Sequence record: NC_054914.1
Reading direction: 5' to 3' (one strand)
Source: Escherichia phage vB_EcoM-fFiEco06
DNA: 64,000 nt
Each line of letters begins with the position of its first letter. Within the stretch, counting starts at the first letter, position 1. The translations under genes and the position numbers were made by a program. The notes under the pieces were generated by a model, which was not told the DNA's origin, made no database searches, and saw only the letters and a program-made list of their open reading frames with translations. Positions 1,236-61,517 of the stretch are shown one piece after another.

Positions 1236-1880
1236 TTGATTATGGGGCTTCGGCCCCTATTCTCGAGGAAACAAGTGATTATTTCTAAGTTTGTTACAAT
1301 AAAACCAAGAAATCATTCAAAAATGTGGTCGACAATTCTGGGATATAAAGTATCATATCATGATACAGTATCTGTTCCAATAGAATTAATGCCAAAGAAT
1401 AGTAATAAAATAGTTGACGCTAAATGTGATTTGTGTGGTATTAAATTTAGTAGAAGCATTCAGCTTTTAAATAGAACACCCACGCATGCATGTAGAAAAT
1501 GTAGCATTAAACAAGTTGCTATTAAAAATTCGGAAGTTCAATCTGGAATAAGTAGACCATGGCAAAGAGGTGATAAACATCCTCGATGGACTGGTAAAAG
1601 AAAAGAGTTTGCATTATATGCTAGTAGAGTTCATTCTATAACTAAGTCAGCTAAAATAAGAAAAATCTGGTCAAAATGGCCAAATGCTGATAAAATAGGA
1701 GTGTGTGGTGTAGAAGGTGCTTACCAGCTTGATCATAAGGTATCTATCAAATATGGATTTGATAATTTAATTCCGCCGGAAATTATAGCAAGCGTAAAAA
1801 ATTTAGAAATAATCACTTGGGAATCTAACCGAGAAAAGTCAAAAAGAAATAGCGTAGATCTTTGGGATTTACTAGAATGA
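1236..1880 (+). CDS. HNH-family endonuclease-like protein with N-terminal CxxC...CxxC zinc ribbon; probable free-standing homing endonuclease; start codon uncertain (TTG 1236, ATG 1242, GTG 1272 or ATG 1323)
   Basis: C-terminal motif YQLDHKVSIKYGFDNL...ITWESNREKSKRN (D-H...N...N) and CDLCG...CRKC seen in translation; ORF fills the gene 18/19 gap. Confidence 0.55.
   Translation: MIMGLRPLFSRKQVIISKFVTIKPRNHSKMWSTILGYKVSYHDTVSVPIELMPKNSNKIVDAKCDLCGIKFSRSIQLLNRTPTHACRKCSIKQVAIKNSEVQSGISRPWQRGDKHPRWTGKRKEFALYASRVHSITKSAKIRKIWSKWPNADKIGVCGVEGAYQLDHKVSIKYGFDNLIPPEIIASVKNLEIITWESNREKSKRNSVDLWDLLE
1244..1257 (+). terminator. GGGGC-UUCG-GCCCC tetraloop hairpin immediately after gene 18 stop
   Basis: Perfect 5-bp GC stem with UUCG loop read directly; weak U-tract. 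Confidence 0.6.
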
Positions 1881-9259: not shown

Positions 9260-10264
9260 TTAACTTACCAATTCAATCCAAGCCGGACGAAGTACATCTT
9301 GTACCATTTTAACTAATTCCTTCTTAATCAAAGAAGGATTATCCGCTTGAGTTAGAGTAATACCTTCACGAGAAGTTTCTTCCAAAATATCTTGAACAGT
9401 TAGCCCCATCACCTTTCCAAAATCTTTTGGACCAATTTCACCAATTTTAGAAATAACGTTATTTACTCGGTTCAGTGTAACGTAACAAGCTAAAATTCCA
9501 ACCAATTTGTTATCAGCTTCTGACAGTTCAACTTTAGCTTTAATAGGCTTATCAGACTTTTTCTTTTCACTAAATTTAGAGTTCTTGCATTTGATAGCTA
9601 CGCGATTGCCATTAGGCATCCAAGAAGGATAACAAGGTTTCAATACATATCCTTCAGCGGTAAATACTTCGCCTTTTACTTCAGCATTCCAAACGCATTT
9701 ATTTGCATCAACTAATCCAGCATGGTCTACCGTAAAATTATAATCCTGGACGACAGAATCTAAATCATTTGGCAATTTAATAAGTTCTTCAAATTTACCG
9801 CGACCTAAAAGTGGAGCCATTTTAAATTTAAATGTATTGCAGAATGATTCCATCATATAATCATCGACATAAGTCACATCACCACTTTCTGTAGTAACAA
9901 TAATGTCAAATACATAAAAATCTTTATCGCCATAATCGACATTCTTCTGAATGCCAGATCCAGCGAATTCGCCAAAAACTTGATAAGATACAACCGCTGA
10001 AGTTTCCATAATATCTTGTACTGCTTTAATGGAATCAGAGTAATTCTTCAAAATAATTTCATACCCAAAGAAATCTTCAGCAGGAAGAATAGGACCAGTG
10101 CGTTTAGCGCAAGTTACTTTATCACGCTCAATAATCAATGAGAAATTTGTGCCGTGAATCTTTTCACGAGCTACCCACTCCCCACCAGTCAATCCCAAGC
10201 TATAAAGTTTTTCAATAAATTTAGAGTTGTAATGATTTTCAAGACTGCTATACTTTTTAAACAT
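9260..10264 (-). CDS. rnlB: RNA ligase 2 (334 aa)
   Basis: N-terminus [19 protein letters not shown] and KIHGTN nucleotidyl-transfer lysine motif; length matches T4 Rnl2. Confidence 0.9.
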
Positions 10265-10273
10265 AATTAATCC

Positions 10274-10552
10274 TCAAAATGTAATTTCTAACCAATCACC
10301 ATCACGCTGATCACTATTGACTTTAAAGCTAAATCCTTCTTTTCTCAGCCAATCACCAATTTCTTCAGTAATCAATTTATCGCGAGCAGTACAATAATAA
10401 CTAAAATATGTTTTACCTTGTTCAGCTGCTTTATTAGCAAGTTCCGAAAAATCTTTAATAAAACACTCTAGCTTAAACTGTTTACTTTTAAGTGCTTTTT
10501 CGCGTAATCGATTAGCAAAAGATTCATTTTCATAAAGATCATACTGTTCCAT
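10274..10552 (-). CDS. hypothetical protein (position of T4 24.2)
   Basis: 92-aa ORF in compact co-oriented array. Confidence 0.5.
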   Translation of the reverse strand: MEQYDLYENESFANRLREKALKSKQFKLECFIKDFSELANKAAEQGKTYFSYYCTARDKLITEEIGDWLRKEGFSFKVNSDQRDGDWLEITF

Positions 10553-30523: not shown

Positions 30524-30716
30524 TACTTATAATTTCAACATCAGCCCAATGACCATAGCAAGGAAGACGAAATTCAACTGGCCAGTTAGGGTCCTTTTCT
30601 AATATAATAGACTTAACTTGTGGTTCTTCATGTTCATCAGTATACGGATTTTTATCTGTTACTTTATATGTGACCTTAATGTACTGAATTCCAAAAATCT
30701 TATTAATTATATTCAT
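30510..30716 (-). CDS. hypothetical early protein, 68 aa
   Basis: ORF in overlapping array. Confidence 0.45.
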   Translation of the reverse strand: MNIINKIFGIQYIKVTYKVTDKNPYTDEHEEPQVKSIILEKDPNWPVEFRLPCYGHWADVEIISIENV

Positions 30717-37757: not shown

Positions 37758-38053
37758 TTACATTTATCCTCTTTTAACTCTTGACGATAATAACATATCA
37801 TAGTTTTCTGGTCGTGTACATATCGTTTTACATCATTAAGCCAAATACGAAATTCCTGAGAATCTTCAAATGGCATACCGACCCAAGCTTTACCATCAAT
37901 AACTTTAACTTGCCAAGATAATTTAGCTTCGTCATATGACTTTATTTGTACAGGCCAATTAGGATGAACTGTTTCTTTCTTTACTTCTAGAGGCTTTGTC
38001 GAACAACCAACTAGAAGACCAATAGATAATATTACTGCTGATAGTTTAATCAT
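37754..38053 (-). CDS. outer-membrane spanin (o-spanin) lipoprotein, 99 aa; probably the T4 pseT.2 equivalent
   Basis: Signal peptide with lipobox LLVGC (MIKLSAVILSIGLLVGCS). Confidence 0.7.
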   Translation of the reverse strand: MIKLSAVILSIGLLVGCSTKPLEVKKETVHPNWPVQIKSYDEAKLSWQVKVIDGKAWVGMPFEDSQEFRIWLNDVKRYVHDQKTMICYYRQELKEDKCK

Positions 38054-38403
38054 TTAGAAAGGTCCTGGATGTCTTCTGCGAACTTGTTGAAGGAGTTGTT
38101 GATTTGTTTTTCAACCAATCCTGGCTTACGAGCCACCACATCCGCCTTCTTTGCATCTTTGCGCAGTTTTTCATTTTCACGCTCAATAGCAGCAATCGCC
38201 TCACGATTTTTATTATTCATCGCATCAATATAATTATACTGAATTCGCAAATTATTTAATGCTAAGGCGTTTTCATTGGCCGTTTTTGTAATTTCTACAA
38301 CAGACGTTTCTAATCTTTCAATTTTATTTTTTAAAATTAAAGAAGTTCCGCCTAATGCAATTACAATTAATAGCAAACCTGCTGTCGTATTACTTAATTG
38401 CAT
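38050..38403 (-). CDS. inner-membrane spanin (i-spanin), 117 aa; probably the T4 pseT.3 equivalent
   Basis: N-terminal transmembrane helix (AGLLLIVIALGGTSLIL) then coiled-coil-like periplasmic domain; directly upstream of the lipoprotein gene. Confidence 0.7.
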   Translation of the reverse strand: MQLSNTTAGLLLIVIALGGTSLILKNKIERLETSVVEITKTANENALALNNLRIQYNYIDAMNNKNREAIAAIERENEKLRKDAKKADVVARKPGLVEKQINNSFNKFAEDIQDLSK

Positions 38404-38900
38404 AAAGTTTTAATAACCTCTATAATATCGTCTTGAGAAAGACCGTTAATTAAAATATGATGTTCAGCCGGAGATTTAGAAATTTTAAAGCACGCCGCAA
38501 CATCTTCTGCCATATCCGATGCGCTACGATTTGGATTACTAATTCCAAGACGATGTTTTCCCGTTAAAGGATTAACGATGATATAGCATTTACAGTTGTT
38601 AATATGAACATTAGGTTGAGTCTGATTAATGAACACATCGCAATCATATTTCGCAAGCTGATTTTCTAAAAAGACTTTCATCTCCTCAACCGCATCAGGA
38701 AGCATATCACGGGCTTGCTCAAGACGACGATTTCGATATTCTTTAATGGTCGTTTTCCGCTTGACTTGCTTAGCTAAATCTTTCTTAAGATCGGTGATAT
38801 ATCCAACTCGACGATTTCCTTTAAATACAGAAATCCCATCTGTAGTATCACCGTATGCTTCAACGACCATTTCAGTAGTAATAAGCTGCAAATCCATCAT
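38394..38900 (-). CDS. alc: Alc transcription-termination protein candidate (168 aa)
   Basis: Assigned by size and position next to rnlA. Confidence 0.55.
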   Translation of the reverse strand: MMDLQLITTEMVVEAYGDTTDGISVFKGNRRVGYITDLKKDLAKQVKRKTTIKEYRNRRLEQARDMLPDAVEEMKVFLENQLAKYDCDVFINQTQPNVHINNCKCYIIVNPLTGKHRLGISNPNRSASDMAEDVAACFKISKSPAEHHILINGLSQDDIIEVIKTLCN

Positions 38901-38961
38901 AAAGTCCTCATGTTATGTCAGTAAGACTACTATAACACAACACGAGGGACTTGTAAACAGC

Positions 38962-40549
<1,588 letters not shown>

Positions 40550-40557
40550 AATAAAAT

Positions 40558-40571
40558 GGGCCTTGCGGCCC
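40558..40571 (-). terminator. GGGCC-GCAA-GGCCC hairpin between nrdB stop and denA start
   Basis: 5-bp GC stem read on minus strand, followed by AUUUUAUU. Confidence 0.5.
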
Positions 40572-40576
40572 ACTCC

Positions 40577-41755
40577 TTAAAAGTATTTTTTAAAACTCAT
40601 CATAACTTTATCATCAACATCATTATCAATCTGTGCAACAAGGTAAGATGACAATTCTACTTCTTGTGGCGCAGATTGAACATTATCAGAATTAAGATAT
40701 TCACGAATCCAAGGATATGGATGTTTAACCGGAGCATCGGTAATTGGGCATGGAAGACCACACTGCTTCATACGAGATACAGTTAAGTAATCAATAAAGC
40801 TCCACATGCTATTTGTATTTAATCCAGGAACATCTCCATCTTTAAATAAATGAACTGCCCAATCTTTTTCTTGGCGGTTAACTTCCATGAAAATATCAAC
40901 TGCTTCTTGTTCACACTCTTGAGCAATTTTAACCCATTGATCGCCATCAGTACCAGATTGAAGTTGACGAATAATATATTGGGTGCCTTTAAGGTGAAGC
41001 TGTTCATCGCGTGCAATGAACTTCATAATCTTGGCATTACCTTCCATGATTTCCATGTTCTTATGGAAGTTAAAGGTACATGCAAAAGATACATAAAAAC
41101 GAATAGCTTCCAATGCGTTGATTACATGCAAACAGAGGTAAAGAGATTTCATTAGCTCACGCTTCCAATATGTCTCATGCTCAATAGCATCTTCAATAAC
41201 GTCTTCGTCTGCATTAATTTCTTTTTGGTATTCGATATCAGCTTTAGCGTTTTCCCAATAACGAGTTTTAATCAGAACATCATCATAATAACGTCCAATG
41301 GATTCAGCACGTTTCATAATAGCTTCATCTAATACAATCTCATCAAATACCTTCGATGGATCAGTATAAAGATTTCGCATGATATGAGTATATGAACGAC
41401 TGTGAATAGTTTCACTAAAAGTCCATGTAGCAACCCATGTATCAAGACTTGGGTCTGAAATTAATGACATAAGTACAGCAGACGGCGCACGACCCTGAAT
41501 GCTATCTAAAAGTGATTGATACTTCAGGTTGTTAGTAAAAATATTTTGCTGGTACTGAGGAAGCTTATTAAACTGTGCAGCATCCATCATCAAGTTTACT
41601 TCTTCAGGACGCCAGAAAAATGATAATTGCTTTTCGGTTAAATCTTCAAAAACTTTATGACGTTGAATATCATAACGCGCAATACCAAGACCTGAACCAA
41701 AAAACATAGGTTCTTTTAAAACATCAACTGGATTTGTATTAAAAACTGTGCTCAT
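40577..41755 (-). CDS. nrdB: ribonucleotide reductase small subunit NrdB, uninterrupted
   Basis: Continuous 392-aa ORF recognisable as R2. Confidence 0.9.
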   Translation of the reverse strand: MSTVFNTNPVDVLKEPMFFGSGLGIARYDIQRHKVFEDLTEKQLSFFWRPEEVNLMMDAAQFNKLPQYQQNIFTNNLKYQSLLDSIQGRAPSAVLMSLISDPSLDTWVATWTFSETIHSRSYTHIMRNLYTDPSKVFDEIVLDEAIMKRAESIGRYYDDVLIKTRYWENAKADIEYQKEINADEDVIEDAIEHETYWKRELMKSLYLCLHVINALEAIRFYVSFACTFNFHKNMEIMEGNAKIMKFIARDEQLHLKGTQYIIRQLQSGTDGDQWVKIAQECEQEAVDIFMEVNRQEKDWAVHLFKDGDVPGLNTNSMWSFIDYLTVSRMKQCGLPCPITDAPVKHPYPWIREYLNSDNVQSAPQEVELSSYLVAQIDNDVDDKVMMSFKKYF

Positions 41756-41806
41756 AAATTTTCCGCTTAGTTAATAGTTGGTGACTCGTCCGTGAGTCAA
41801 ATTATA

Positions 41807-44071
41807 TCATAATTTACAGGATGAACAATCTTCAGCTTTTGGAGTTTCTATTTCATAATCATCAGTACCAGAACCATCGCGGGTATTATGATAATAGAAA
41901 TTTTTTCCGCCAAAATACCAAAAATACAAAAGGTCATCAATCATTATTGACATTGGAACCTTGCCTTTAGGGAAGATTTGGGGGTCATAGTATGTATTCG
42001 CCGAAGCTGATTGACAAACCCATTTCAGCATAATAGCTACCTGCGTAAGATAAGGTTTATTACCTTTCTTAGCTAATTTCCATGTATAGTCGTAAAGGTC
42101 TATGTTATGCTCAATATTGGGCACGACTTGATTAAAGGAACCCTCTTTTGATTCTTTAACAGAGACTGGTCCACGTGGAGGCTCGATACCGTTTGTACTG
42201 TTAGAAACTTGGGAAGATGACTCACATGGCATAAGTGCTGATAATGTGCTATTACGGATGCCAAAGAGCTTAAGGTCTTCCCGCAGCGCCGACCAGTCAC
42301 AAACGTATTTTGGAGCTGCGATTTGGTCAATCTTTTTATTGTACCAGTCGATAGGTAATTCGCCTCGAGACCAACGAGTGTCTGAATAATATTCGCAAGG
42401 TCCTTTTTCTTTGGCGAGCTTAATGGATGCTTTAATGAGTCCATACTGTAATCTCTCAAATAGTTCATGTGTTAAATCATTAGCATCTTCATAAGAAGCA
42501 AAGTTACTTGCCAGCCAAGCTGCATAGTTGGTAACACCTACACCGAGGTTACGACGCTTTTTAGCTTTTTCTGCTTCAGGAACTGGATATCCTTGGTAAT
42601 CCAACAGATTATCAAGAGCACGAACTTGAACTTCTGCCAATTCATTAATTTTATCTTGGTCTTGCCAGTCAAAATTATCTAGTACGAATGCAGAGAGAGT
42701 ACACAATCCAATTTCAGCATCAGGACTATTCACATCATTTGTTGGAATAGCAATTTCACAGCACAAGTTACTCTGACGAATAGGTGCCTTTTCACGAATA
42801 AACGGAGTATAGTTATTCGTATTATCAATGAACTGTACATAAATTCTTGCTGTTCCTGAGCGTTCAGTCATGAGCAATTCAAATAGTTCACGGGCTTTAA
42901 TACGCTTTTTACGAATATTAGGGTCTTTTTCTGCTGCTTCGTATAATTCACGGAAACGGTCTTGGTCTTTAAAATAAGAATAATAAAGCTCTCCGCCCAT
43001 TTCATGGGGACTGAACAAAGTAATGTAATCGTTCTTTCCAAAACGTTCCATCATCAAATCATTCAGTTGAACACCATAATCCATATGACGAATGCGGTTT
43101 TCTTCTACGCCTTTGTTATTTTTCAAAACAAGAAGATTTTCAACTTCCAAATGCCAAATAGGATAATAAGCAGTAGCAGCGCCGCCACGAATTCCACCCT
43201 GTGAGCATGATTTAACAGCAGTCTGAAAATGTTTCCAAAAAGGAATAACACCAGTATGGCGTACTTCACCCATGCCAATCTTAGAACCTTCAGCACGAAT
43301 CATACCAACGTTAATACCAATTCCAGCGCGTTTAGAGATATATTCAACAATTGAAGCAGAAGCCTTATTGATAGACTTCAGTGAATCGCCTGCCTCAATA
43401 ACAACGCATGAACTAAACTGCCGAGTTGGAGTACGGCAACCAGCCATAATAGGAGTTGGTAATGAAATCTGTCGAGTAGATACCGCTTCATAAAAACGGA
43501 TAACATGTTTTAATCTATCAACAGGTTCATCTTGATGCAAGGCCATTCCAATAGTCATAAATGCAAACTGTGGAGTTTCATAAATTTGACCAGTGGTTTT
43601 ATCTTTAACTAGATATTTTTCTTTTAATTGCATCGCCCCGGAATAAGTAAATTCCATATCCCGTTCGTGCTTAATTTTTGATTCTAAAAATGTAATTTCT
43701 TCTGCTGAATATTTTGACAACAGTTCAGGGTCGTATTTACCTTCATTTACACAGTAAGAAATATGGTCAATAAATGAACGCGGTTCATACTGCCCATAAA
43801 CATGCTTACGAAGAGCGAACATTAGACAACGTGCAGCTACATATTGATAATCAGGCTCTTCGACCGAAATAGAATTCGCAGCGGCCTTAATGACAATAGT
43901 CTGAATATCATCAGTTGTCATTCCATCACGGAGATAAGATTTAATATTTTCATATAATTCATAAGGATCTACTGATGTTCCCTCAGATGCCCAAGATAAA
44001 ACTTTAATAATTTTTTGCGGGTCAAAGCTCTGAGAAACACCACTACTTTTGATAACATTAATTAATTGCAT
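41807..44071 (-). CDS. nrdA: ribonucleotide reductase large subunit NrdA (754 aa)
   Basis: Length matches T4 NrdA; class I RNR large subunit. Confidence 0.93.
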   Translation of the reverse strand: MQLINVIKSSGVSQSFDPQKIIKVLSWASEGTSVDPYELYENIKSYLRDGMTTDDIQTIVIKAAANSISVEEPDYQYVAARCLMFALRKHVYGQYEPRSFIDHISYCVNEGKYDPELLSKYSAEEITFLESKIKHERDMEFTYSGAMQLKEKYLVKDKTTGQIYETPQFAFMTIGMALHQDEPVDRLKHVIRFYEAVSTRQISLPTPIMAGCRTPTRQFSSCVVIEAGDSLKSINKASASIVEYISKRAGIGINVGMIRAEGSKIGMGEVRHTGVIPFWKHFQTAVKSCSQGGIRGGAATAYYPIWHLEVENLLVLKNNKGVEENRIRHMDYGVQLNDLMMERFGKNDYITLFSPHEMGGELYYSYFKDQDRFRELYEAAEKDPNIRKKRIKARELFELLMTERSGTARIYVQFIDNTNNYTPFIREKAPIRQSNLCCEIAIPTNDVNSPDAEIGLCTLSAFVLDNFDWQDQDKINELAEVQVRALDNLLDYQGYPVPEAEKAKKRRNLGVGVTNYAAWLASNFASYEDANDLTHELFERLQYGLIKASIKLAKEKGPCEYYSDTRWSRGELPIDWYNKKIDQIAAPKYVCDWSALREDLKLFGIRNSTLSALMPCESSSQVSNSTNGIEPPRGPVSVKESKEGSFNQVVPNIEHNIDLYDYTWKLAKKGNKPYLTQVAIMLKWVCQSASANTYYDPQIFPKGKVPMSIMIDDLLYFWYFGGKNFYYHNTRDGSGTDDYEIETPKAEDCSSCKL

Positions 44072-44388
44072 AAGTCCTCAACTTGAAAATCGTCTTTAAA
44101 CAGTCGGTTAACTATATGAGCTATTATATCACCATGACACGGCTTTGGTTTACATGTGCATCCTAGCCTCATTCCACGTAAAGGCTCTAAATGTGCTTTA
44201 GTTATTTCTCCGGATTTAATTCGACGTATAAAATCTTTTTTGAATAATTCAATGGCAGCCTCCCGGCTGCCAGCATCTTTACCGACGTAATTTCCCCAAA
44301 ATGTACCACGGTGAATATTCACATCAAAGTCGGATTTGTATTTATTCACTACCCGACATAGACGGCCCGCGCGGTGATAATTCGGCAT
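44062..44388 (-). CDS. hypothetical protein, 108 aa (nrdA.1 position)
   Basis: ORF overlapping nrdA start. Confidence 0.5.
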
Positions 44389-44605
44389 ATTGTTTTTCCG
44401 TTAAAACAGTAATATCGTAGTAACAGTCAGAAGAAGTTTTAACTGTGGAAATTTTATTATCAAAATACTCACGAGTCATTTTATGAGTATAATATTTTTT
44501 GCCATAAATGATAATAGGCTGATTTGGTCCTGGAACTTCTAACTCACTTGGGTTAGGAAGTGTAAAAAGAACTACACCAGAAGTATCTTTAAATCGTAAA
44601 ATCAT
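44342..44605 (-). CDS. hypothetical protein, 87 aa (nrdA.2 position)
   Basis: ORF in array. Confidence 0.5.
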
Positions 44606-44628
44606 AAATCCTCACAATTAAATTAAAA

Positions 44629-44940
44629 TTACACCGCCATTTTTCCTTTCAAGACGCCGTGGGACTGATAATCTTTGAGAACGAAATCTTTAGGCCTGAG
44701 TTTAAGAATGTATTCCAATTGTTCTTTAGTAGAAAGATAGCGGAATTTATAAGGCAATCCGCCTATTACCAGTTCACAAAGCTCTTTAGGTTCACGACGC
44801 AAAATTTCTTTACATTGTTCTACGTGATTCATATAGATATGAGTATTACCACCGGAAAATATCAAATCTCCCGGAATAAGATTACACATCTTAGCTACAA
44901 TATGAACTAACGTAGCATATGATGCAATATTAAATGGAAG
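44629..44940 (-). CDS. td: thymidylate synthase exon 2 (103 codons, begins LPFNIASYA...)
   Basis: TS C-terminal sequence; exon junction deduced from reading frame. Confidence 0.92.
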   Translation of the reverse strand, partial: LPFNIASYATLVHIVAKMCNLIPGDLIFSGGNTHIYMNHVEQCKEILRREPKELCELVIGGLPYKFRYLSTKEQLEYILKLRPKDFVLKDYQSHGVLKGKMAV

Positions 44941-45956
44941 CATTATGTTCAGATAAGGTCGTTAATCTTACCCCGGAATTATATCCAGCTGCATGTCACC
45001 ATGCAGATCAGACTATATCTCCAACTTGTTAAAGCAAGTTGTCTATCGTTTCGAGTCACTTGACCCTACTCCCCAAAGGGATAGTCGTTAGGCATTTATG
45101 TAGAACCAATTCCATTTATCAGATTTTACACGATAAGTAACTAATCCAGACGAAATTTTAAAATGTCTAGCTGCATCTGCTGCACAATCAAAAATAACCC
45201 CATCACATGAAATCTTTTTAATATTACTAGGCTTTTTACCTTTCATCTTTTCTGATATTTTAGATTTAGTTATGTCTGAATGCTTATGATTAAAGAATGA
45301 ATTATTTTCACCTGAACGATTTCTGCATTTACTACAAGTATAAGCAGAAGTTTGTATGCGAACACCGCACTTACAAAACTTATGGGTTTCTGGATTCAAA
45401 CGCCCGTTTTTACTTCCGGGTTTACTGTAAAGAGCTTTCCGACCATCAGGTCCAAGTTTAAGCATCTTAGCTTTAACAGTTTCAGAACGTTTCTTAATAA
45501 TTTCTTCTTTTAATGGATGCGTAGAACATGTATCACCAAACGTTGCATCAGCAATATTGTATCCATTAATTTTAGAATTAAGCTCTTTAATCCAAAAATT
45601 TTCTCGTTCAATAATCAAATCTTTCTCATATGGAATTTCTTCCAAAATAGAACATTCAAACACATTACCATGTTTGTTAAAAGACCTCTGAAGCTTTATA
45701 GAAGAATGGCATCCTTTTTCTAAATCTTTAAAATGCCTCTTCCATCTCTTTTCAAAATCTTTAGCACTTCCTACATATACTTTATTGTTTAAAGTATTTT
45801 TAATCTGATAAATTCCGCTTTTCATAAATACCTCTTTAAATATAGAAGTATTTATTAAAGGGCAGTCCTACAATTTAGCACGGGATTGTCTACTAGAGAG
45901 GTTCCCCGTTTAGATAGATTACAAGTATAAGTCACCTTATACTCAGGCCTCAATTA
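44941..45956 (-). mobile_element. td group I self-splicing intron (1016 nt) carrying I-TevI
   Basis: Intron 5' sequence TAATTGAGGCCTGAGTATAAGGTGACTTATACTTGTAATC... recognised; length equals T4 td intron. Confidence 0.92.
45088..45825 (-). CDS. I-TevI: GIY-YIG homing endonuclease I-TevI (245 aa), intron-encoded
   Basis: N-terminus MKSGIYQIKNTLNNKVYVGSAKDFEKRWKRH (GIY...YVG) and zinc finger; length matches. Confidence 0.93.
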   Translation of the reverse strand: MKSGIYQIKNTLNNKVYVGSAKDFEKRWKRHFKDLEKGCHSSIKLQRSFNKHGNVFECSILEEIPYEKDLIIERENFWIKELNSKINGYNIADATFGDTCSTHPLKEEIIKKRSETVKAKMLKLGPDGRKALYSKPGSKNGRLNPETHKFCKCGVRIQTSAYTCSKCRNRSGENNSFFNHKHSDITKSKISEKMKGKKPSNIKKISCDGVIFDCAADAARHFKISSGLVTYRVKSDKWNWFYINA

Positions 45957-46504
45957 ACCCAAGAAAACATCTACTGATCGTTGATACCACTGCAAATCCA
46001 AATAGCCATTACGCACATTAAACTGATAGAACATATGACAAGGCGGTAATGCCATCTGCTTGAGTTCAGCTGGATTCCATGCTGAAACAATTTGACGCCT
46101 ATCATTTGGCAATTTTTTAATACGATCAATAACTTCTATAATTTGGTCTACACCACCAAAATCACGCCACTGTTTTCCATAAATTGGACCAAGTTCACCG
46201 CTATGGTATCCTAAATCTTTTGCTTGATTTTCGTAATTTTCATCCCAAACTGTTTTGCCTTGGATTAACGAATCATGTTGAATTAATCGCAAATCATTGA
46301 CATTTGTGCTTCCCGATAAAAACCAAAGCAGCTCAGCAATGCAAGCTTTCCAGGCGAGCTTCTTAGTTGTTACTGCAGGAAAACCTTTAGTTAAATCCCA
46401 GCGTAATTTAGTACCGAACAAAGCAATTGTTCCTGTGCCTGTTCGGTCATCGGTTTCGTAGCCATTTTCCAGGATATCTTTAATTAAAAATTGGTATTGT
46501 TTCA

Positions 46505-46505
<1 letters not shown>
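45957..46505 (-). CDS. td: thymidylate synthase exon 1 (183 codons, MKQYQ...VDVFLG)
   Basis: TS N-terminal sequence; exons 1+2 give 286 aa as in T4. Confidence 0.92.
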
Positions 46506-47534
<1,029 letters not shown>

Positions 47535-47544
47535 ATTATTTTCC

Positions 47545-47787
47545 TTAAACAGACTTTTTCACAATTTTCCAATCAGCTTTAAACTGCTCGACGTCAGAAT
47601 GGTAAATCCAGAATCCTGCGCTTTCACCGTCTTCATAAAGCGGACACCCATCACATTCATCTTCCCATCCCATGCCACGTAAAAGGTGTTCAGCTTTTTC
47701 AACAAGTTCAGAATCTTTACCGATGATATTAAAATACCATTTACCTCTAACTTCTGAATCTTTGATGCTCTGGCGTTGTAATCTCAT
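47545..47787 (-). CDS. hypothetical protein, 80 aa
   Basis: ORF in array. Confidence 0.5.
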   Translation of the reverse strand: MRLQRQSIKDSEVRGKWYFNIIGKDSELVEKAEHLLRGMGWEDECDGCPLYEDGESAGFWIYHSDVEQFKADWKIVKKSV

Positions 47788-47925
47788 TTTATTCTCCTTA
47801 GCAAGCTTTAATCAAAAGATATAAACAGACCAACATAACTGCTGCCATAATATAAGGTGCGAACATTTTCTTTTCTCCATTAGTTTTGATAGGGTAATAG
47901 TATCACACTACTACCCTTCTGTAAA

Positions 47926-48291
47926 CTACTTTTTGAAAGTTTTTCGCAAAAGTTCAATGATTTCATCTACATTGTTTTCGTCAACAATGCAGTGAATTTT
48001 TGTTACGCCAGAAACTTTGTCTTTGACTTCATCTTCTTCAGAAGTCGGTTCTTTATACTCACGAAAACAATGAAATTCGTCTTCACAAACGTTAAAGTAA
48101 AAATGCTTTCCATTTGCGCATTCAATGTGTTTTATTACTCTAAATCCATCAACAAAGAAAGCTTCTTTAACTTCAAACCATCCGCCATTTTCTTGAATAA
48201 TTTTAACTATTGCTGAATTAGAACGTGGGCGATAATTAATAAATGTATCAATAAGTCTTGGAACAAGTTCATACTTTTTACCGATATACAT
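47926..48291 (-). CDS. hypothetical protein, 121 aa
   Basis: ORF with GAGG RBS after hairpin. Confidence 0.5.
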   Translation of the reverse strand: MYIGKKYELVPRLIDTFINYRPRSNSAIVKIIQENGGWFEVKEAFFVDGFRVIKHIECANGKHFYFNVCEDEFHCFREYKEPTSEEDEVKDKVSGVTKIHCIVDENNVDEIIELLRKTFKK

Positions 48292-57696: not shown

Positions 57697-60681
57697 ATGG
57701 CTACTTTAAAACAAATACAATTTAAAAGAAGCAAAACTGCAGGTCAACGTCCTGCTGCTTCAGTATTAGCCGAAGGTGAATTGGCTATAAACTTAAAAGA
57801 TAAAACAATTTTCACAAAAGATGACTCAGGTAGTGTTATAGAATTAGGTTTAAAATATGGAGGAACAATTGATGGTTCTTTAACTGTTAATGGAAATATA
57901 ATTGGAAATTTAACAGGTAACGCTGCAACTGCAACGAAATTAAAAACAGCACGAAAAATTAATGGTATATCCTTTGATGGGTCAAAAGATATCACGCTAA
58001 CTCCATCTGACATAAATGTCAATAGCACAACGTTTATAAAAAATAATGGCGAATTACCTGTTGATGCTAATTTAGATACGTATGGGCCTGTTGAAGAATG
58101 TCTTGGAGTTTGGTCGAAAGCAACTTCAACCAACGCTCAACCAGCAAATAAATTTCCAGAAGAAAATGCTGTAGGTGTGCTAGAAGTATTTGTGGCCGGT
58201 CAATTTGCTGGTACTCAGAGATATACAACTAGATACGGAAATGTTTATATTCGTTCCTTGACTGCTACATGGAACGGAGTAAATGGTCCGTGGAGTGTGT
58301 GGCGAAATATTCAATCTGGTACTCGTCCACTGTCAACAACAATTGATCTTAATGATCTAGGAGGCGCTGAACACTTTGGTTTGTGGCGAAATAGTTCAAA
58401 TTCCATTGCTACCTTTGACAGAAATTTCCCAGAAGAAGGATCGTCCGCTCAAGGACTTTTAGAAGTATATGAAGGTGGAAACTATTCTCGCACACAGAGA
58501 TATACGACCAGATTTGGTGTTGTTTATACTCGTTGTCTTACTGCTGCGTGGGATGCTTCTGCGCCTAAATGGGGACCTTGGCAACAAGTCGGTAATGTCA
58601 CACCGGCGACTTTCTATGACGGAGATCTGAATGATTTTAAAACTCCTGGGTTATATAATATTTTAGGCACTGATGCCGTTATTAACTGTCCTACCGGTGA
58701 AGGTTTGCCGACTGTTATTGTTGGTTTGCTGGAAGTTAAACAGCGTGCTTCTGGCGGTGCTATTTTCCAAAAATTTACTACTGCCGGAACGGGTGCAACT
58801 ACTCGCGATCGTATTTTTGAGCGTGCATATACTGGTGGTGTGTGGGGTGCATGGAACGAAGTATATACATCTTATTCTCTTCCAATTACTTTGGGTATGG
58901 GTGGTATTAAAGCTCAATTAGCGGAGTTAGATTGGCAAACCTTTGATTTTGTTCCTGGTAGTATGTTTAGCGTTCCTTTGAACAAAATAAAGAACATGCC
59001 AGCAAATATGGATTGGGGGACGATTGACGGAAACCTGGTTATGTTTTCCGTTGGTCCTAGCGAACACACTAGCACAGGGCGTACTGTTCAGGTTTGGCGC
59101 GGTACTGTATCCCAGACAAACTACCGTTATTTTGTCGTTCGTGTGTTCGGTAATTCTGGAAATAGAACTTGCACAGTCCGCCGTGTTGTTCTTGAAGATG
59201 GTCGCCACACATGGACAGCTCAACAAGATTTTAATGGTGCTGTTAACTTCGGTGCTCCTACCAATTTTAACTCTACTGTTAACCTTAATAACACTACCAC
59301 ATTTAAAACAGAAGTTAAATTCCGCTCATCTAATGCATTCCGTATGTATGGCGGAAAATTTGGTACAATTTTCCGTAATGATGGAGAGAGTCTTTATATT
59401 CTTTCCACCGACGAAAATGATCAAGATGGAAACTTTAATACAAATAGACCTTTCCGTTATGAATTAAGAACTGGTGATGTTACTTTGGGTGGTACTAGTG
59501 GTGCTAACGTTTTAAAATTAAAACGCGATTCTCTCACCGCATTTTTTGGTGGTGATATTAATATAAAAGGCTTGATGACTTTTGATGCCGGACGTTTAGG
59601 ATCACGAGATTATTTTAAATTTAACCATTGGGGTGATAGTAATAATGCGCGCGATAACATTATTCAGTTAGAAGACAGCAAAGGCGTTCATTTTTCCACT
59701 GAACGTACTTTAGCGACTGGTGCAATTAAAACTAAATTCTTTGGTGAAGTTGAATCCGAAGGTAGATTGATTATTAAACGTCCGGGTGATTCTATTGTAT
59801 TATCAACAACTGCTGGTAATGCTTTGCATATTCGTGGTGACGTAGACGGGAGTGGTAACTGGTATATTGGTAAGGGTGGTGCTGATAATTCGCTAGCATT
59901 TTATAGCTATGCTACTCAGGCGGCAGTACATATCACAAACAATGGTGAGATTTCGCTAAATCCACAAAATATCGCAATGGTTAACGTTAACCGCGATCGT
60001 GTACACATTAACGGTTCTGGATGGATTGCTAGACAACCGGGTGATTGGGGCAACCAATGGCGAGTAGAAGCTCCATTATTCGTCGATCATGGTTATGTTT
60101 CACAGGATTGTTATTATCCAATTATTAAAGGAAGAAGTGTAATCACCAATCAAGGGTTTGTAACTGCCGTCGATCTTGGTATTCGTCGTGTCCCTAACAA
60201 TTGGGGGCAAGCAATTATTCGTGTTGGATCTGCAGAGGCATCGCCAGCGGCTGGACACCCTAACGCGGTATTTGAATTTCATTACGACGGTACTTTCTAT
60301 TCTCCTGGTAATGGTAACTTTAACGATGTGTATATTCGTTCCGATGGTCGTCTTAAGATTAATAAAAAAGAGCTAGAAAACGGAGCACTTGAAAAAGTAT
60401 GTCGACTGAAAGTTTATATTTACGATAAAGTTAAGTCTATTAAAGACCGTAGTGTTATTAAACGTGAAGTTGGTATTATTGCTCAGGACCTTGAAAAGGA
60501 ATTACCGGAAGCTGTATCTAAAGTTGAAGTTGATGGATCTGATGTTCTGACAATTTCTAACTCTGCTGTGAATGCTCTTTTAATTAAGGCTATTCAGGAA
60601 ATGAGTGAAGAAATTAAAGAATTGAAAACGCCTCTCTTTACTAAAATTGCTCGCAAAATTAGTAAATATTTTAAATTCTAA
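57697..60681 (+). CDS. 37: long tail fibre distal subunit gp37 (994 aa), T2-type with C-terminal intramolecular chaperone-like domain
   Basis: Position/size; N-terminus conserved with T4 gp37; C-terminal SDGRLK motif. Confidence 0.9.
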
Positions 60682-60687
60682 CAACAA

Positions 60688-60702
60688 GGGGGAAATGCCC
60701 CC
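60688..60702 (+). terminator. GGGGG-AAAUG-CCCCC hairpin + UUU after gene 37
   Basis: 5-bp G/C stem read directly. Confidence 0.55.
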
Positions 60703-60716
60703 TTTGGAGTATAATT

Positions 60717-61517
60717 ATGGCAGTAGTTGGTGTTCCTGGTTGGATTGGAAGTTCAGCCGCAAATGAAACAGGACAGCGCTGGATGAGTCAAGCGGCTGGT
60801 CAATTAAGATTGGGTGTTCCTTGCTGGATGAGTCAATTTGCAGGTCGCTCACGAGAAATTATTCACACCCTTGGAGCGGACCATAACTTCAATGGTCAAT
60901 GGTTCCGAGATAGATGTTTTGAGGCAGGTAGTGCACCTATAGTGTTTAATATTACCGGAAATTTGGTATCATATTCTAGAGACGTTCCTTTATTCTTCAT
61001 GTATGGAGATACACCTAATGAATATGTTCAGTTGAATATTGGTGGCGGCGTCCATATGTGGGGTAGAGGTGGACAAGGTGGATGGACCCATTCCGGCGGA
61101 GATGGTAATGGTCAACAAGGTGGTCATTGTATTCAAAATGACATCGGTGGACGATTAAGAATTAATAACGGTGGAGTAATTTGTGGTGGAGGTGGAGGTG
61201 GAGGTGGTATCGCTTATCGTCCTCACTCTGGTGCAAATTGGCAAGATATTGGTGGTGGTGGAGGAAGACCATTTGGCCCAGGAGGAGGCGGAGGTTATTC
61301 CGGCGGCGCAGCTTCTTATGATGGCCCAGGAGGTGGTTATAATTATGGTAATGCTCACTCTGGCCAGGGTGGTGATGCTGGCGCAAATGGACAAAATGCC
61401 TGGTATGATGGCGGTAAAGTTCTAAAAGTTGGAGCTGGTGGCGCTGCCGGATATGCTGTTATAGGATCAGCTCCAACATGGCAAAATGTTGGAGTAATAT
61501 ATGGTCCAAGGGTATAA
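60717..61517 (+). CDS. 38: gp38 receptor-binding adhesin (T2/T6 type, glycine-rich motifs), 266 aa
   Basis: Conserved N-terminal domain followed by Gly-rich motifs and variable segments; between 37 and t. Confidence 0.8.
61035..61451 (+). repeat. glycine-rich motif region of gp38 (GGG.., GGGGGGGG, GGGGG, GGGGG runs separated by variable segments)
   Basis: Poly-Gly runs in translation; GGT/GGA/GGC codon runs in DNA. Confidence 0.8.

Follow-up and report, generated by a model that had tools for sequence, protein, structure and literature searches.

It has been on record since the late 1980s that T-even phages vary in whether they carry the nrdB intron and the mobE gene. In phage T4 (NC_000866) all three of the sites considered here are occupied: td contains its intron, nrdB is joined from two exons separated by a 598-nt intron that follows nt 664 and holds a defective I-TevIII ORF, and the 696-bp spacer between nrdA and nrdB carries mobE (annotated in RefSeq as mobE plus nrdB.1), together with an internal terminator and the middle promoter of nrdB (PMC2790892). 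Phage T2 (AP018813.1; T2H AY262132.2) is empty at all three, with an uninterrupted td of 861 nt, an uninterrupted 392-codon nrdB of 1179 nt and an empty 51-bp spacer. Its nrd allele was the recipient in the work of Wilson & Edgell 2009 (PMC2790892), where mobE was found to move from T4 into T2. A strand-specific nick that depends on MobE is made in T2 nrdB at nt 122–126, in codon 42 and just upstream of the FFWRPEE-coding block, and repair then brings mobE, and in trans also the defective intron, into the T2 genome; the catalytic domain of MobE has been proposed to read the polymorphic region nt 114–131, and codon 42 is AAG in all mobE-less phages (PMC2790892). When T4 and T2 were crossed, T2 was likewise the recipient of I-TevI (PMC2790892), in agreement with its intron-less td. 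Cleavage by I-TevIII, the RB3 enzyme, takes place at positions -14 and -16 from the intron insertion site (PMC1865063). In phage T6 (MH550421.1) the td intron with I-TevI is present, nrdB is an uninterrupted 388-aa allele, and a 637-bp spacer between nrdB and nrdA harbours an intact mobE encoding 213 aa (HNH plus NUMOD3). The nrd region as a whole is a hotspot of endonuclease insertion (PMC2790892).

The window analysed here is a stretch of 64,000 nucleotides from Escherichia phage vB_EcoM-fFiEco06 (NC_054914.1), and the nrd and td features given below lie on its minus strand. We read its nrdB-nrdA region, with a probability of about 0.88, as an ordinary unoccupied allele of the known homing-element presence/absence polymorphism of the genus Tequatrovirus, in which the individual sites assort independently, and as a predicted target of MobE and I-TevIII. 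The nrdB gene (40577–41755; ORF list, Pfam and annotation of MG781191.1) consists of a single 392-codon ORF starting with ATG. Its product is a class Ia ribonucleotide reductase small subunit: this one ORF holds a full-length Ribonuc_red_sm domain (PF00268, E=5.7e-37, 128 bits, residues 33–335), and residues 46–52 form the FFWRPEE block with the radical-transfer tryptophan. The large subunit gene nrdA (41807–44071, identified from the same three sources) is likewise uninterrupted and encodes 754 aa with the ATP-cone, Ribonuc_red_lgN and Ribonuc_red_lgC domains (the last with E=5.5e-135), the all-alpha and barrel parts being complete in the Pfam search; it shares 96–97% identity with nrdA of T2, T4 and T6. 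The original prediction that nrdB is one continuous 392-codon ORF, separated from nrdA by only 51 bp, was borne out by these coordinates, which leave a gap at 41756–41806, and by the intact small-subunit domain. Positions 38500–44500 matched Escherichia phage vB_EcoM-fHoEco02 (MG781191.1) at 100% by megablast. That record is annotated with the identical arrangement, namely nrdB, nrdA, td joined from two pieces, and I-TevI, and a 1-nt indel near window position 30638 distinguishes it from the window.

Gene order in this part of the genome is that of T4 (td, nrdA.2, nrdA.1, nrdA, nrdB, denA, rnlA), and the two phages share about 96% identity from nrdA through td and from nrdB exon 2 through alc. 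Both T4 insertions, the nrdB intron and mobE, were skipped in the alignment (BLASTN and MAFFT). Window positions 38001–41079 aligned with T4 135379–138457 at 96.3%, and 41082–41755 aligned with T4 139058–139719 at 85.8%, with indels (BLASTN). T4 is thus interrupted at both sites where the window is not. When the T4 pre-mRNA and the intron-containing alleles of phages AV121, RB7 and fPS-2 were aligned with the window in MAFFT, the empty insertion site fell between nt 676 and 677 of nrdB (...TTTTGCAT^GTACC..., 41079–41080). The T4/RB3 nrdB group I intron, which measures 598 or about 1090 nt, encodes an HNH/zinc-finger ORF and follows ...TTTTGCGT, was absent here, the window aligning ungapped across the site, and neither T4 nor RB7 I-TevIII gave a tblastn match anywhere in the 64 kb. 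The absence of intron and I-TevIII relative to T4, as originally proposed, is therefore confirmed. A search of positions 38000–48000 with the Rfam group I intron models at the gathering threshold returned no hits; T4, whose td and nrdB introns are established, was run as a positive control and likewise returned none. ORF-containing introns escape the model, so the search is uninformative.

The predicted I-TevIII homing site with its flank markers (TGTAATCAACGCATTGG...GCAT, 41060–41125; from comparison with T2 and T4 and from PMC1865063) matches T2 without a difference from 46 nt upstream to 20 nt downstream of the insertion site. Compared with the exon flanks of T4, position -2 is A instead of G, and the markers at -30, -33, -36, -39, -43 and -47 also differ; against the intron-deleted T4 substrate used in experiments, the 29 nt that precede the insertion contain only the difference at -2. 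The exon-1 end CGTTATTAATGCCTTAG...GCGT was common to the four intron-containing alleles examined (T4, AV121, RB7 and fPS-2), and TGTAATCAACGCATTGG...GC(A/T)T to the intron-less alleles of the window, T2 and T6. On this basis the window allele is inferred to be a competent recipient for I-TevIII. The markers also bear on whether the ancestor was T4-like and occupied, with both elements later removed by precise deletion or by exchange for an empty allele through recombination. Models of the homing endonuclease life cycle do predict degeneration and loss, and the I-TevIII of T4 is already defective (PMC2790892). In addition, phage N2 is intron-less yet has the upstream flank markers of intron-containing alleles, so reshuffling of alleles around the intron site does occur. 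However, all polymorphic positions in the 47 nt that precede the insertion carry the intron-minus marker in the window, which argues against simple precise excision from an occupied allele, and relic fragments of the intron or of mobE were not found by tblastn in the 64 kb. Secondary loss is for these reasons, and for those found in the spacer, unlikely. Replacement by a whole empty allele is indistinguishable from a site that was never invaded.

The 51-bp spacer (41756–41806) occupies the site of mobE in T4 and T6 and of other endonuclease genes elsewhere. The T4 spacer is absent from the window, where positions 41811–46506 aligned with T4 140420–145113 (96.4%, BLASTN). The same 51-bp spacer was present in T2, AV121 and fPS-2, with 0–5 substitutions relative to the window (4 in T2). 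The final ~30 nt of nrdA, which adjoin the mobE site, are of T2 type (nt 2251–2265 are 100% identical to T2 and 73% to T4/T6). The last ~150 nt of nrdA are identical to those of T2, and a stretch of identity to T2 that reaches from 90 nt ahead of the nrdB start into the stem of a hairpin in the spacer includes the last 39 nt of nrdA. Sixteen endonuclease and insert proteins, including MobE, I-TevIII, Hef-like, SegD, SegE and SegG, were compared with the window by tblastn, and the only matches were I-TevI and a T6ORF160-like ORF. The latter was located at window positions 1275–1877. The MobE proteins of T4 and T6, the mobE-like protein of RB7 and the Hef-like protein of N2 had no tblastn match in the 64 kb; this, together with the 51 bp available, supports the earlier statement that no mobE lies between nrdB and nrdA. 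That the mobE site is flanked on either side by T2-type sequence makes precise excision from a T4-like allele unlikely, and deletion of mobE would remove the nrdB middle promoter and be counter-selected (PMC2790892). As to an error of assembly or annotation, in which the insertions would have collapsed out of the assembly, the same contiguous junctions were found in hundreds of independent records, including the Sanger-era T2H sequence (AY262132.2) and three T2 genomes, and the ORFs are intact and in frame. The chance of such an artefact is negligible.

Scanning of the spacer and its surroundings revealed no terminator-like site, in line with what has been reported for mobE-less phages (PMC2790892) although weak evidence taken alone, and within the spacer the best match to a sigma-70 promoter was 9/12, none being convincing. 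Only 51 bp and no terminator separate the two genes, so that nrdA transcripts can also cover nrdB. A -10-like TATGAT plus TATAAT overlaps the nrdA stop codon (41801–41811) and is a candidate -10 of an nrdB middle promoter. TATGAT is also the annotated -10 of the T4 nrdB promoter, inside mobE, and mobE-less phages have been reported to have an nrdB middle promoter at this position (PMC2790892). Ten nt upstream of TATGAT, the MotA-box candidate GATTGTTCA (compared with AATGCTTTA) is weak, with 3/5 core bases of TGCTT. There is probably an nrdB promoter at the very end of nrdA.

The sequence that corresponds in the window to the T2 nrdB target of MobE was located at 41604–41642 from the published mapping (PMC2790892) and the T2 alignment. 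The T2 nick sites at nt 122–126 correspond to 41630–41634, codon 42 is AAG (41630–41632), and the FFWRPEE block lies downstream. From nt 100 to 128, including AAG42, window nrdB is the same as that of T2, whereas T4 and T6 differ at many positions. The allele is thus inferred from its sequence to be a competent MobE recipient as well. Synonymous differences from T2, shared by the window and AV121, were present at nt 129 and 132, both 3' of the mapped nicks; nt 129 is within the polymorphic region nt 114–131, and nt 132 is just 3' of it. Resistance of the allele to MobE is therefore conceivable, perhaps through these two changes.

Under the reading of the region as an unoccupied allele, nrdB would never have received, or would not have retained, the I-TevIII-carrying group I intron, and the nrdA-nrdB spacer is without the free-standing HNH endonuclease gene mobE. 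The nrdB gene could be read as part of nrdA transcripts and, probably, from a promoter at the end of nrdA as well. Since the allele keeps the T2-type target sequences, both the MobE nick and the I-TevIII cut are expected: a co-infecting T4 or T6 carrying mobE would nick near nrdB nt 122–126, an I-TevIII of RB3 type would cut 14 and 16 bp upstream of nt 676/677, and repair from the donor genome would copy in the element along with flanking markers. The elements of td, nrdB and the spacer would then assort by separate homing and recombination events.

A further part of the original prediction was that the td intron is present and that the whole pattern of occupancy points to a T2/T6-like lineage. 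The first of these points was verified. The td group I intron (44941–45958, boundaries +/-2 nt, from alignment with the intron-less td of T2 and with T4) is the same as that of T4 and lies inside the single HSP that joins window positions 41811–46506 to T4 140420–145113. It contains an intact I-TevI gene (45088–45825) encoding 245 aa with the GIY-YIG, zinc-finger and DNA-binding domains (Pfam), 99.6% identical to T4 I-TevI at the amino acid level (tblastn).

The lineage claim fared differently. The nrdB-nrdA arrangement is indeed that of T2. However, T2 lacks a td intron, in contrast to the window with its td intron and I-TevI, and T6 has a 642-nt mobE, of which there is none in the window. 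In the order td intron, nrdB intron, mobE, the patterns are - - - for T2, + - + for T6 and + + + for T4, so that the window, which has the td intron but neither the nrdB intron nor mobE, matches none of them. Where the 64 kb could be aligned, identity was nearly the same for the three phages (T4 95.15%, T2 95.24%, T6 95.35%), the aligned fraction being 88% for T4, 88% for T2 and 97.5% for T6; the extra T6 coverage is due mostly to the tail-fibre genes. Within nrdB the nearest relative changes from segment to segment. Identity over nt 1–135 was 98.5% to T2, 77% to T4 and 75.6% to T6; over nt 136–470 it was 94.6%, 96.4% and 90.7%, respectively; over the hypervariable segment nt 471–640 (41116–41285) it was 82% to T2 and 67–70% to T4/T6, with a 12-nt indel; and over exon 2 it was 95.8% to T2, 97.4% to T4 and 98.0% to T6. 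The indel accounts for the length of NrdB, 392 aa here as against 388 aa in T4 and T6. Relative to T2, nrdB is 94.0% identical overall and the protein 96.7%. The gene is a mosaic of T2-like, T4-like and T6-like segments, and the phage itself is a mosaic member of Tequatrovirus, at much the same distance from T2, T4 and T6.

In the NCBI taxonomy the fHoEco02 record, the 100% match, is Tequatrovirus ecombl75, distinct from the species of T2, T4 and T6, and membership in the T2 or T6 species of Tequatrovirus was not found over the 64 kb compared at the ~95% species threshold. Descent within a T2/T6-like lineage, with occupancy inherited vertically, would be consistent with the T2-type arrangement, spacer and nrdB nt 1–135, with the T6 aligned fraction, the highest of the three, and with the tail-fibre genes. 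Gp37 showed 89.7% amino acid identity to T6 over its full length, and the adhesin gp38 is of T2/T6 type, T6 gp38 matching window positions 60717–61514 (82% in the N-terminal part) and T2 gp38 matching at 46%; T4 gp38, the T4-type assembly chaperone, had no match in the window. A T2/T6-type tail-fibre module is present, and it is a different, highly exchangeable module. Five ORFs absent from T4 gave no Pfam domains. Against vertical inheritance stand the mobE of T6, the intron-less td of T2, the near-equal identities, the mosaic nrdB (nt 136–470 nearest T4, exon 2 nearest T6/T4), the separate species of the matching record and, as described below, the frequency of the empty states in the genus and the case of AV121. 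This explanation is accordingly improbable. Occupancy does not track relatedness, and the lineage inference fails.

The frequency of the empty states was estimated with junction probes. A 171-bp probe running from the nrdB start through the spacer to the nrdA end aligned without interruption in 375 of the 496 phage records that it matched, and a 121-bp probe across the intron site in 571 of 685, counts that include RefSeq/GenBank twins and many laboratory T4 isolates and in which coverage below 80% stands for diverged sequences or insertions. For td, the intron junction was found in 232 records and the intron-less junction in 199. This indicates that most sequenced relatives are empty at the nrdB intron site and at the spacer. 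In an evenly spaced sample of the matches listed for the nrdB-to-td stretch, five records were window-like and ten T2-like. The sample also contained RB59, which is T4-like; RB7 (KM606997.1), with the full intron and an RB3-type mobE-like gene; ECO07P1, with the intron only; vB_Eco_CP and KAW1E185, with mobE and without the td intron; and N2, with a hef-like gene. The eight genomes that were fetched had eight different occupancy patterns. The td, nrdB and spacer elements assort independently, and hence their combination is no lineage marker. Other insertions of the region are also missing from the window: its spacer has neither the Hef-like endonuclease of N2 nor the RB3-type 'mobE/nrdB.2' of RB7, and the endonuclease gene that splits nrdA in fPS-2 (compare Aeh1 mobE) had no match. 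The sources for Hef and for the history of intron distribution are database records, PMC2790892 and PMC2988022.

Phage AV121 (OR352951.1) provides a comparison within nearly the same genome. It shares with the window the backbone, the 51-bp spacer and the sequence of the MobE site, yet its nrdB, like that of RB7 and unlike that of the window, carries an RB3-type intron of ~1.09 kb with a 269-aa I-TevIII, with co-conversion of ~0.45 kb on each side. Over 6 kb, 90 differences separated AV121 from the window, of which 84 fell within ~475 nt of the intron site and 6 in the remaining ~5 kb; most of them were in the hypervariable nrdB segment 41116–41285. As judged from the sequences, this is the signature of intron homing with ~0.9 kb of co-conversion into a window-like genome.

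The phenomenon belongs to textbook T-even biology, and a public record already contains the annotated region. Apart from correct annotation it is of little consequence, the mechanism having been worked out in T2, which has the same nrdB-nrdA arrangement. Because homing elements assort independently and differ between near-identical genomes, their presence or absence should not be used for inferring phage lineage. In mixed infections the phage is also predicted to receive mobE and the nrdB intron, which would be of relevance to cocktails with T4-like phages, since marker exclusion and gene conversion around nrdB are expected.

Within the spacer, RNA folding revealed a 6-bp hairpin (TGACTC-ACGGAC-GAGTCA, 41782–41799) with no U-tract, which is not a terminator. 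The fold of its 96-nt context was not significant (z-score -1.1). It is very unlikely, though conceivable, that the synonymous changes at nt 129 and 132, or this hairpin with its conserved stem, partly protect the allele from MobE, or serve as a regulatory or processing element by which the NrdA:NrdB ratio is set where the terminator and promoter of mobE are missing. The stem is kept in T2 and fPS-2, where the sole change falls in the loop.

Downstream of the MobE nick site and upstream of the point of intron insertion, nrdB has a hypervariable segment (nrdB nt 471-640, window 41116-41285), in which identity was 82% to T2 and fell to 67-70%, with a 12-nt indel, in the comparison with T4 and T6. 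At least three allele types were distinguished in this segment, and it also contains the majority of the differences between the window and AV121 (OR352951.1), a related phage that carries the nrdB intron with I-TevIII. This variability may reflect either a relaxed surface loop of the protein or repeated co-conversion from diverged donors.

Over the whole window (1-64000) homing endonuclease genes were fewer than in the corresponding T4 stretch. None of segD, segE, segG, mobE and I-TevIII was found there, and I-TevI was the sole one present among these genes. In T4 segG sits after gene 32, whereas in the window gene 32 is followed directly by gp59. In the T4 reference (NC_000866) the stretch at positions 139716-140416 (9717-10417 of our extract L002) has mobE divided into 'mobE', with the HNH part, and 'nrdB.1', with the NUMOD3 part, whereas in T6 a single 213-aa ORF carries both. 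The nrdB-nrdA spacer there measures 696 nt in the reference versus 694 nt in other T4 records, and it seems that the reference differs by a frameshift or in its sequencing, rather than that two genes exist.

The nrd region of other phages has received different insertions. In the Yersinia phage fPS-2 (LR215722.1; L014 2322-5490) the 236-aa homing-endonuclease gene g225c breaks nrdA into two ORFs, which is reminiscent of the Aeromonas phage Aeh1, where nrdA is split by insertion of mobE; the nrdB intron is present in fPS-2 and the 51-bp spacer is empty. In the Escherichia phage N2 (ON645936.1; L013 1179-2771 and 5108-5839) the nrdA-nrdB spacer is filled by a gene for a 530-aa Hef-like endonuclease, and nrdA is adjoined on the opposite strand by a gene resembling I-TevI, with 46% identity to that of the window. 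The N2 nrdB gene lacks the intron, yet its flank markers on the upstream side are of the kind typically found in alleles with the intron.

Introns were also sought with Rfam at the gathering threshold, and no group I intron was reported in window 38000-48000 or in T4 (L002 7000-16000). The scan missed the window's td intron as well as the known td and nrdB introns of T4, and a negative Rfam scan is therefore uninformative for ORF-containing phage introns.

Along 22 kb around nrdB the window equals MG781191.1, the annotated phage vB_EcoM-fHoEco02, apart from one nucleotide missing from a C run at 30638 (TCATCAG in the window versus TCATCCAG in MG781191.1); the window is thus not letter-for-letter MG781191.1. 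This deletion falls between the homologues of genes 30.3 and 30.5, the place of gene 30.4 in T4, a gene that is not annotated in MG781191.1. Four small minus-strand ORFs annotated in MG781191.1 (35051-35578, 37210-37530, 46505-46711 and 47289-47534) have no counterparts at these positions in T4, and none of the four gave a Pfam match. Pairing by position matched the first, second and fourth to T6 ORFs labelled in the T6 record RB32ORF214c, RB32ORF217c and RB32ORF231c, respectively, whereas no counterpart of 46505-46711 was found. If a GTG codon is taken as its start, in agreement with T4 RefSeq, the minus-strand denA ORF (40139-40573) can be read as a protein of 144 aa, whereas in MG781191.1 and T6 the annotated form begins with ATG and has 136 aa; the ambiguity concerns the start codon only.

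A plus-strand ORF of 201 aa (1275-1877), located between the genes for the tail sheath and the tail tube and without any Pfam domain, is 99.5% identical to T6ORF160, whereas T4 and T2 have no such ORF at this position. The tail-fibre genes (57697-61514) are of T6 type. The gp37 of T6 showed 89.7% amino-acid identity to the window gp37 over its full length, and the window gp38 is a T2/T6-type adhesin (82% to the N-terminal part of T6 gp38, 46% to T2), with no match to T4 gp38 in the window. When DNA was aligned with T4, T2 and T6, window positions 58001-60000 matched T6 only.
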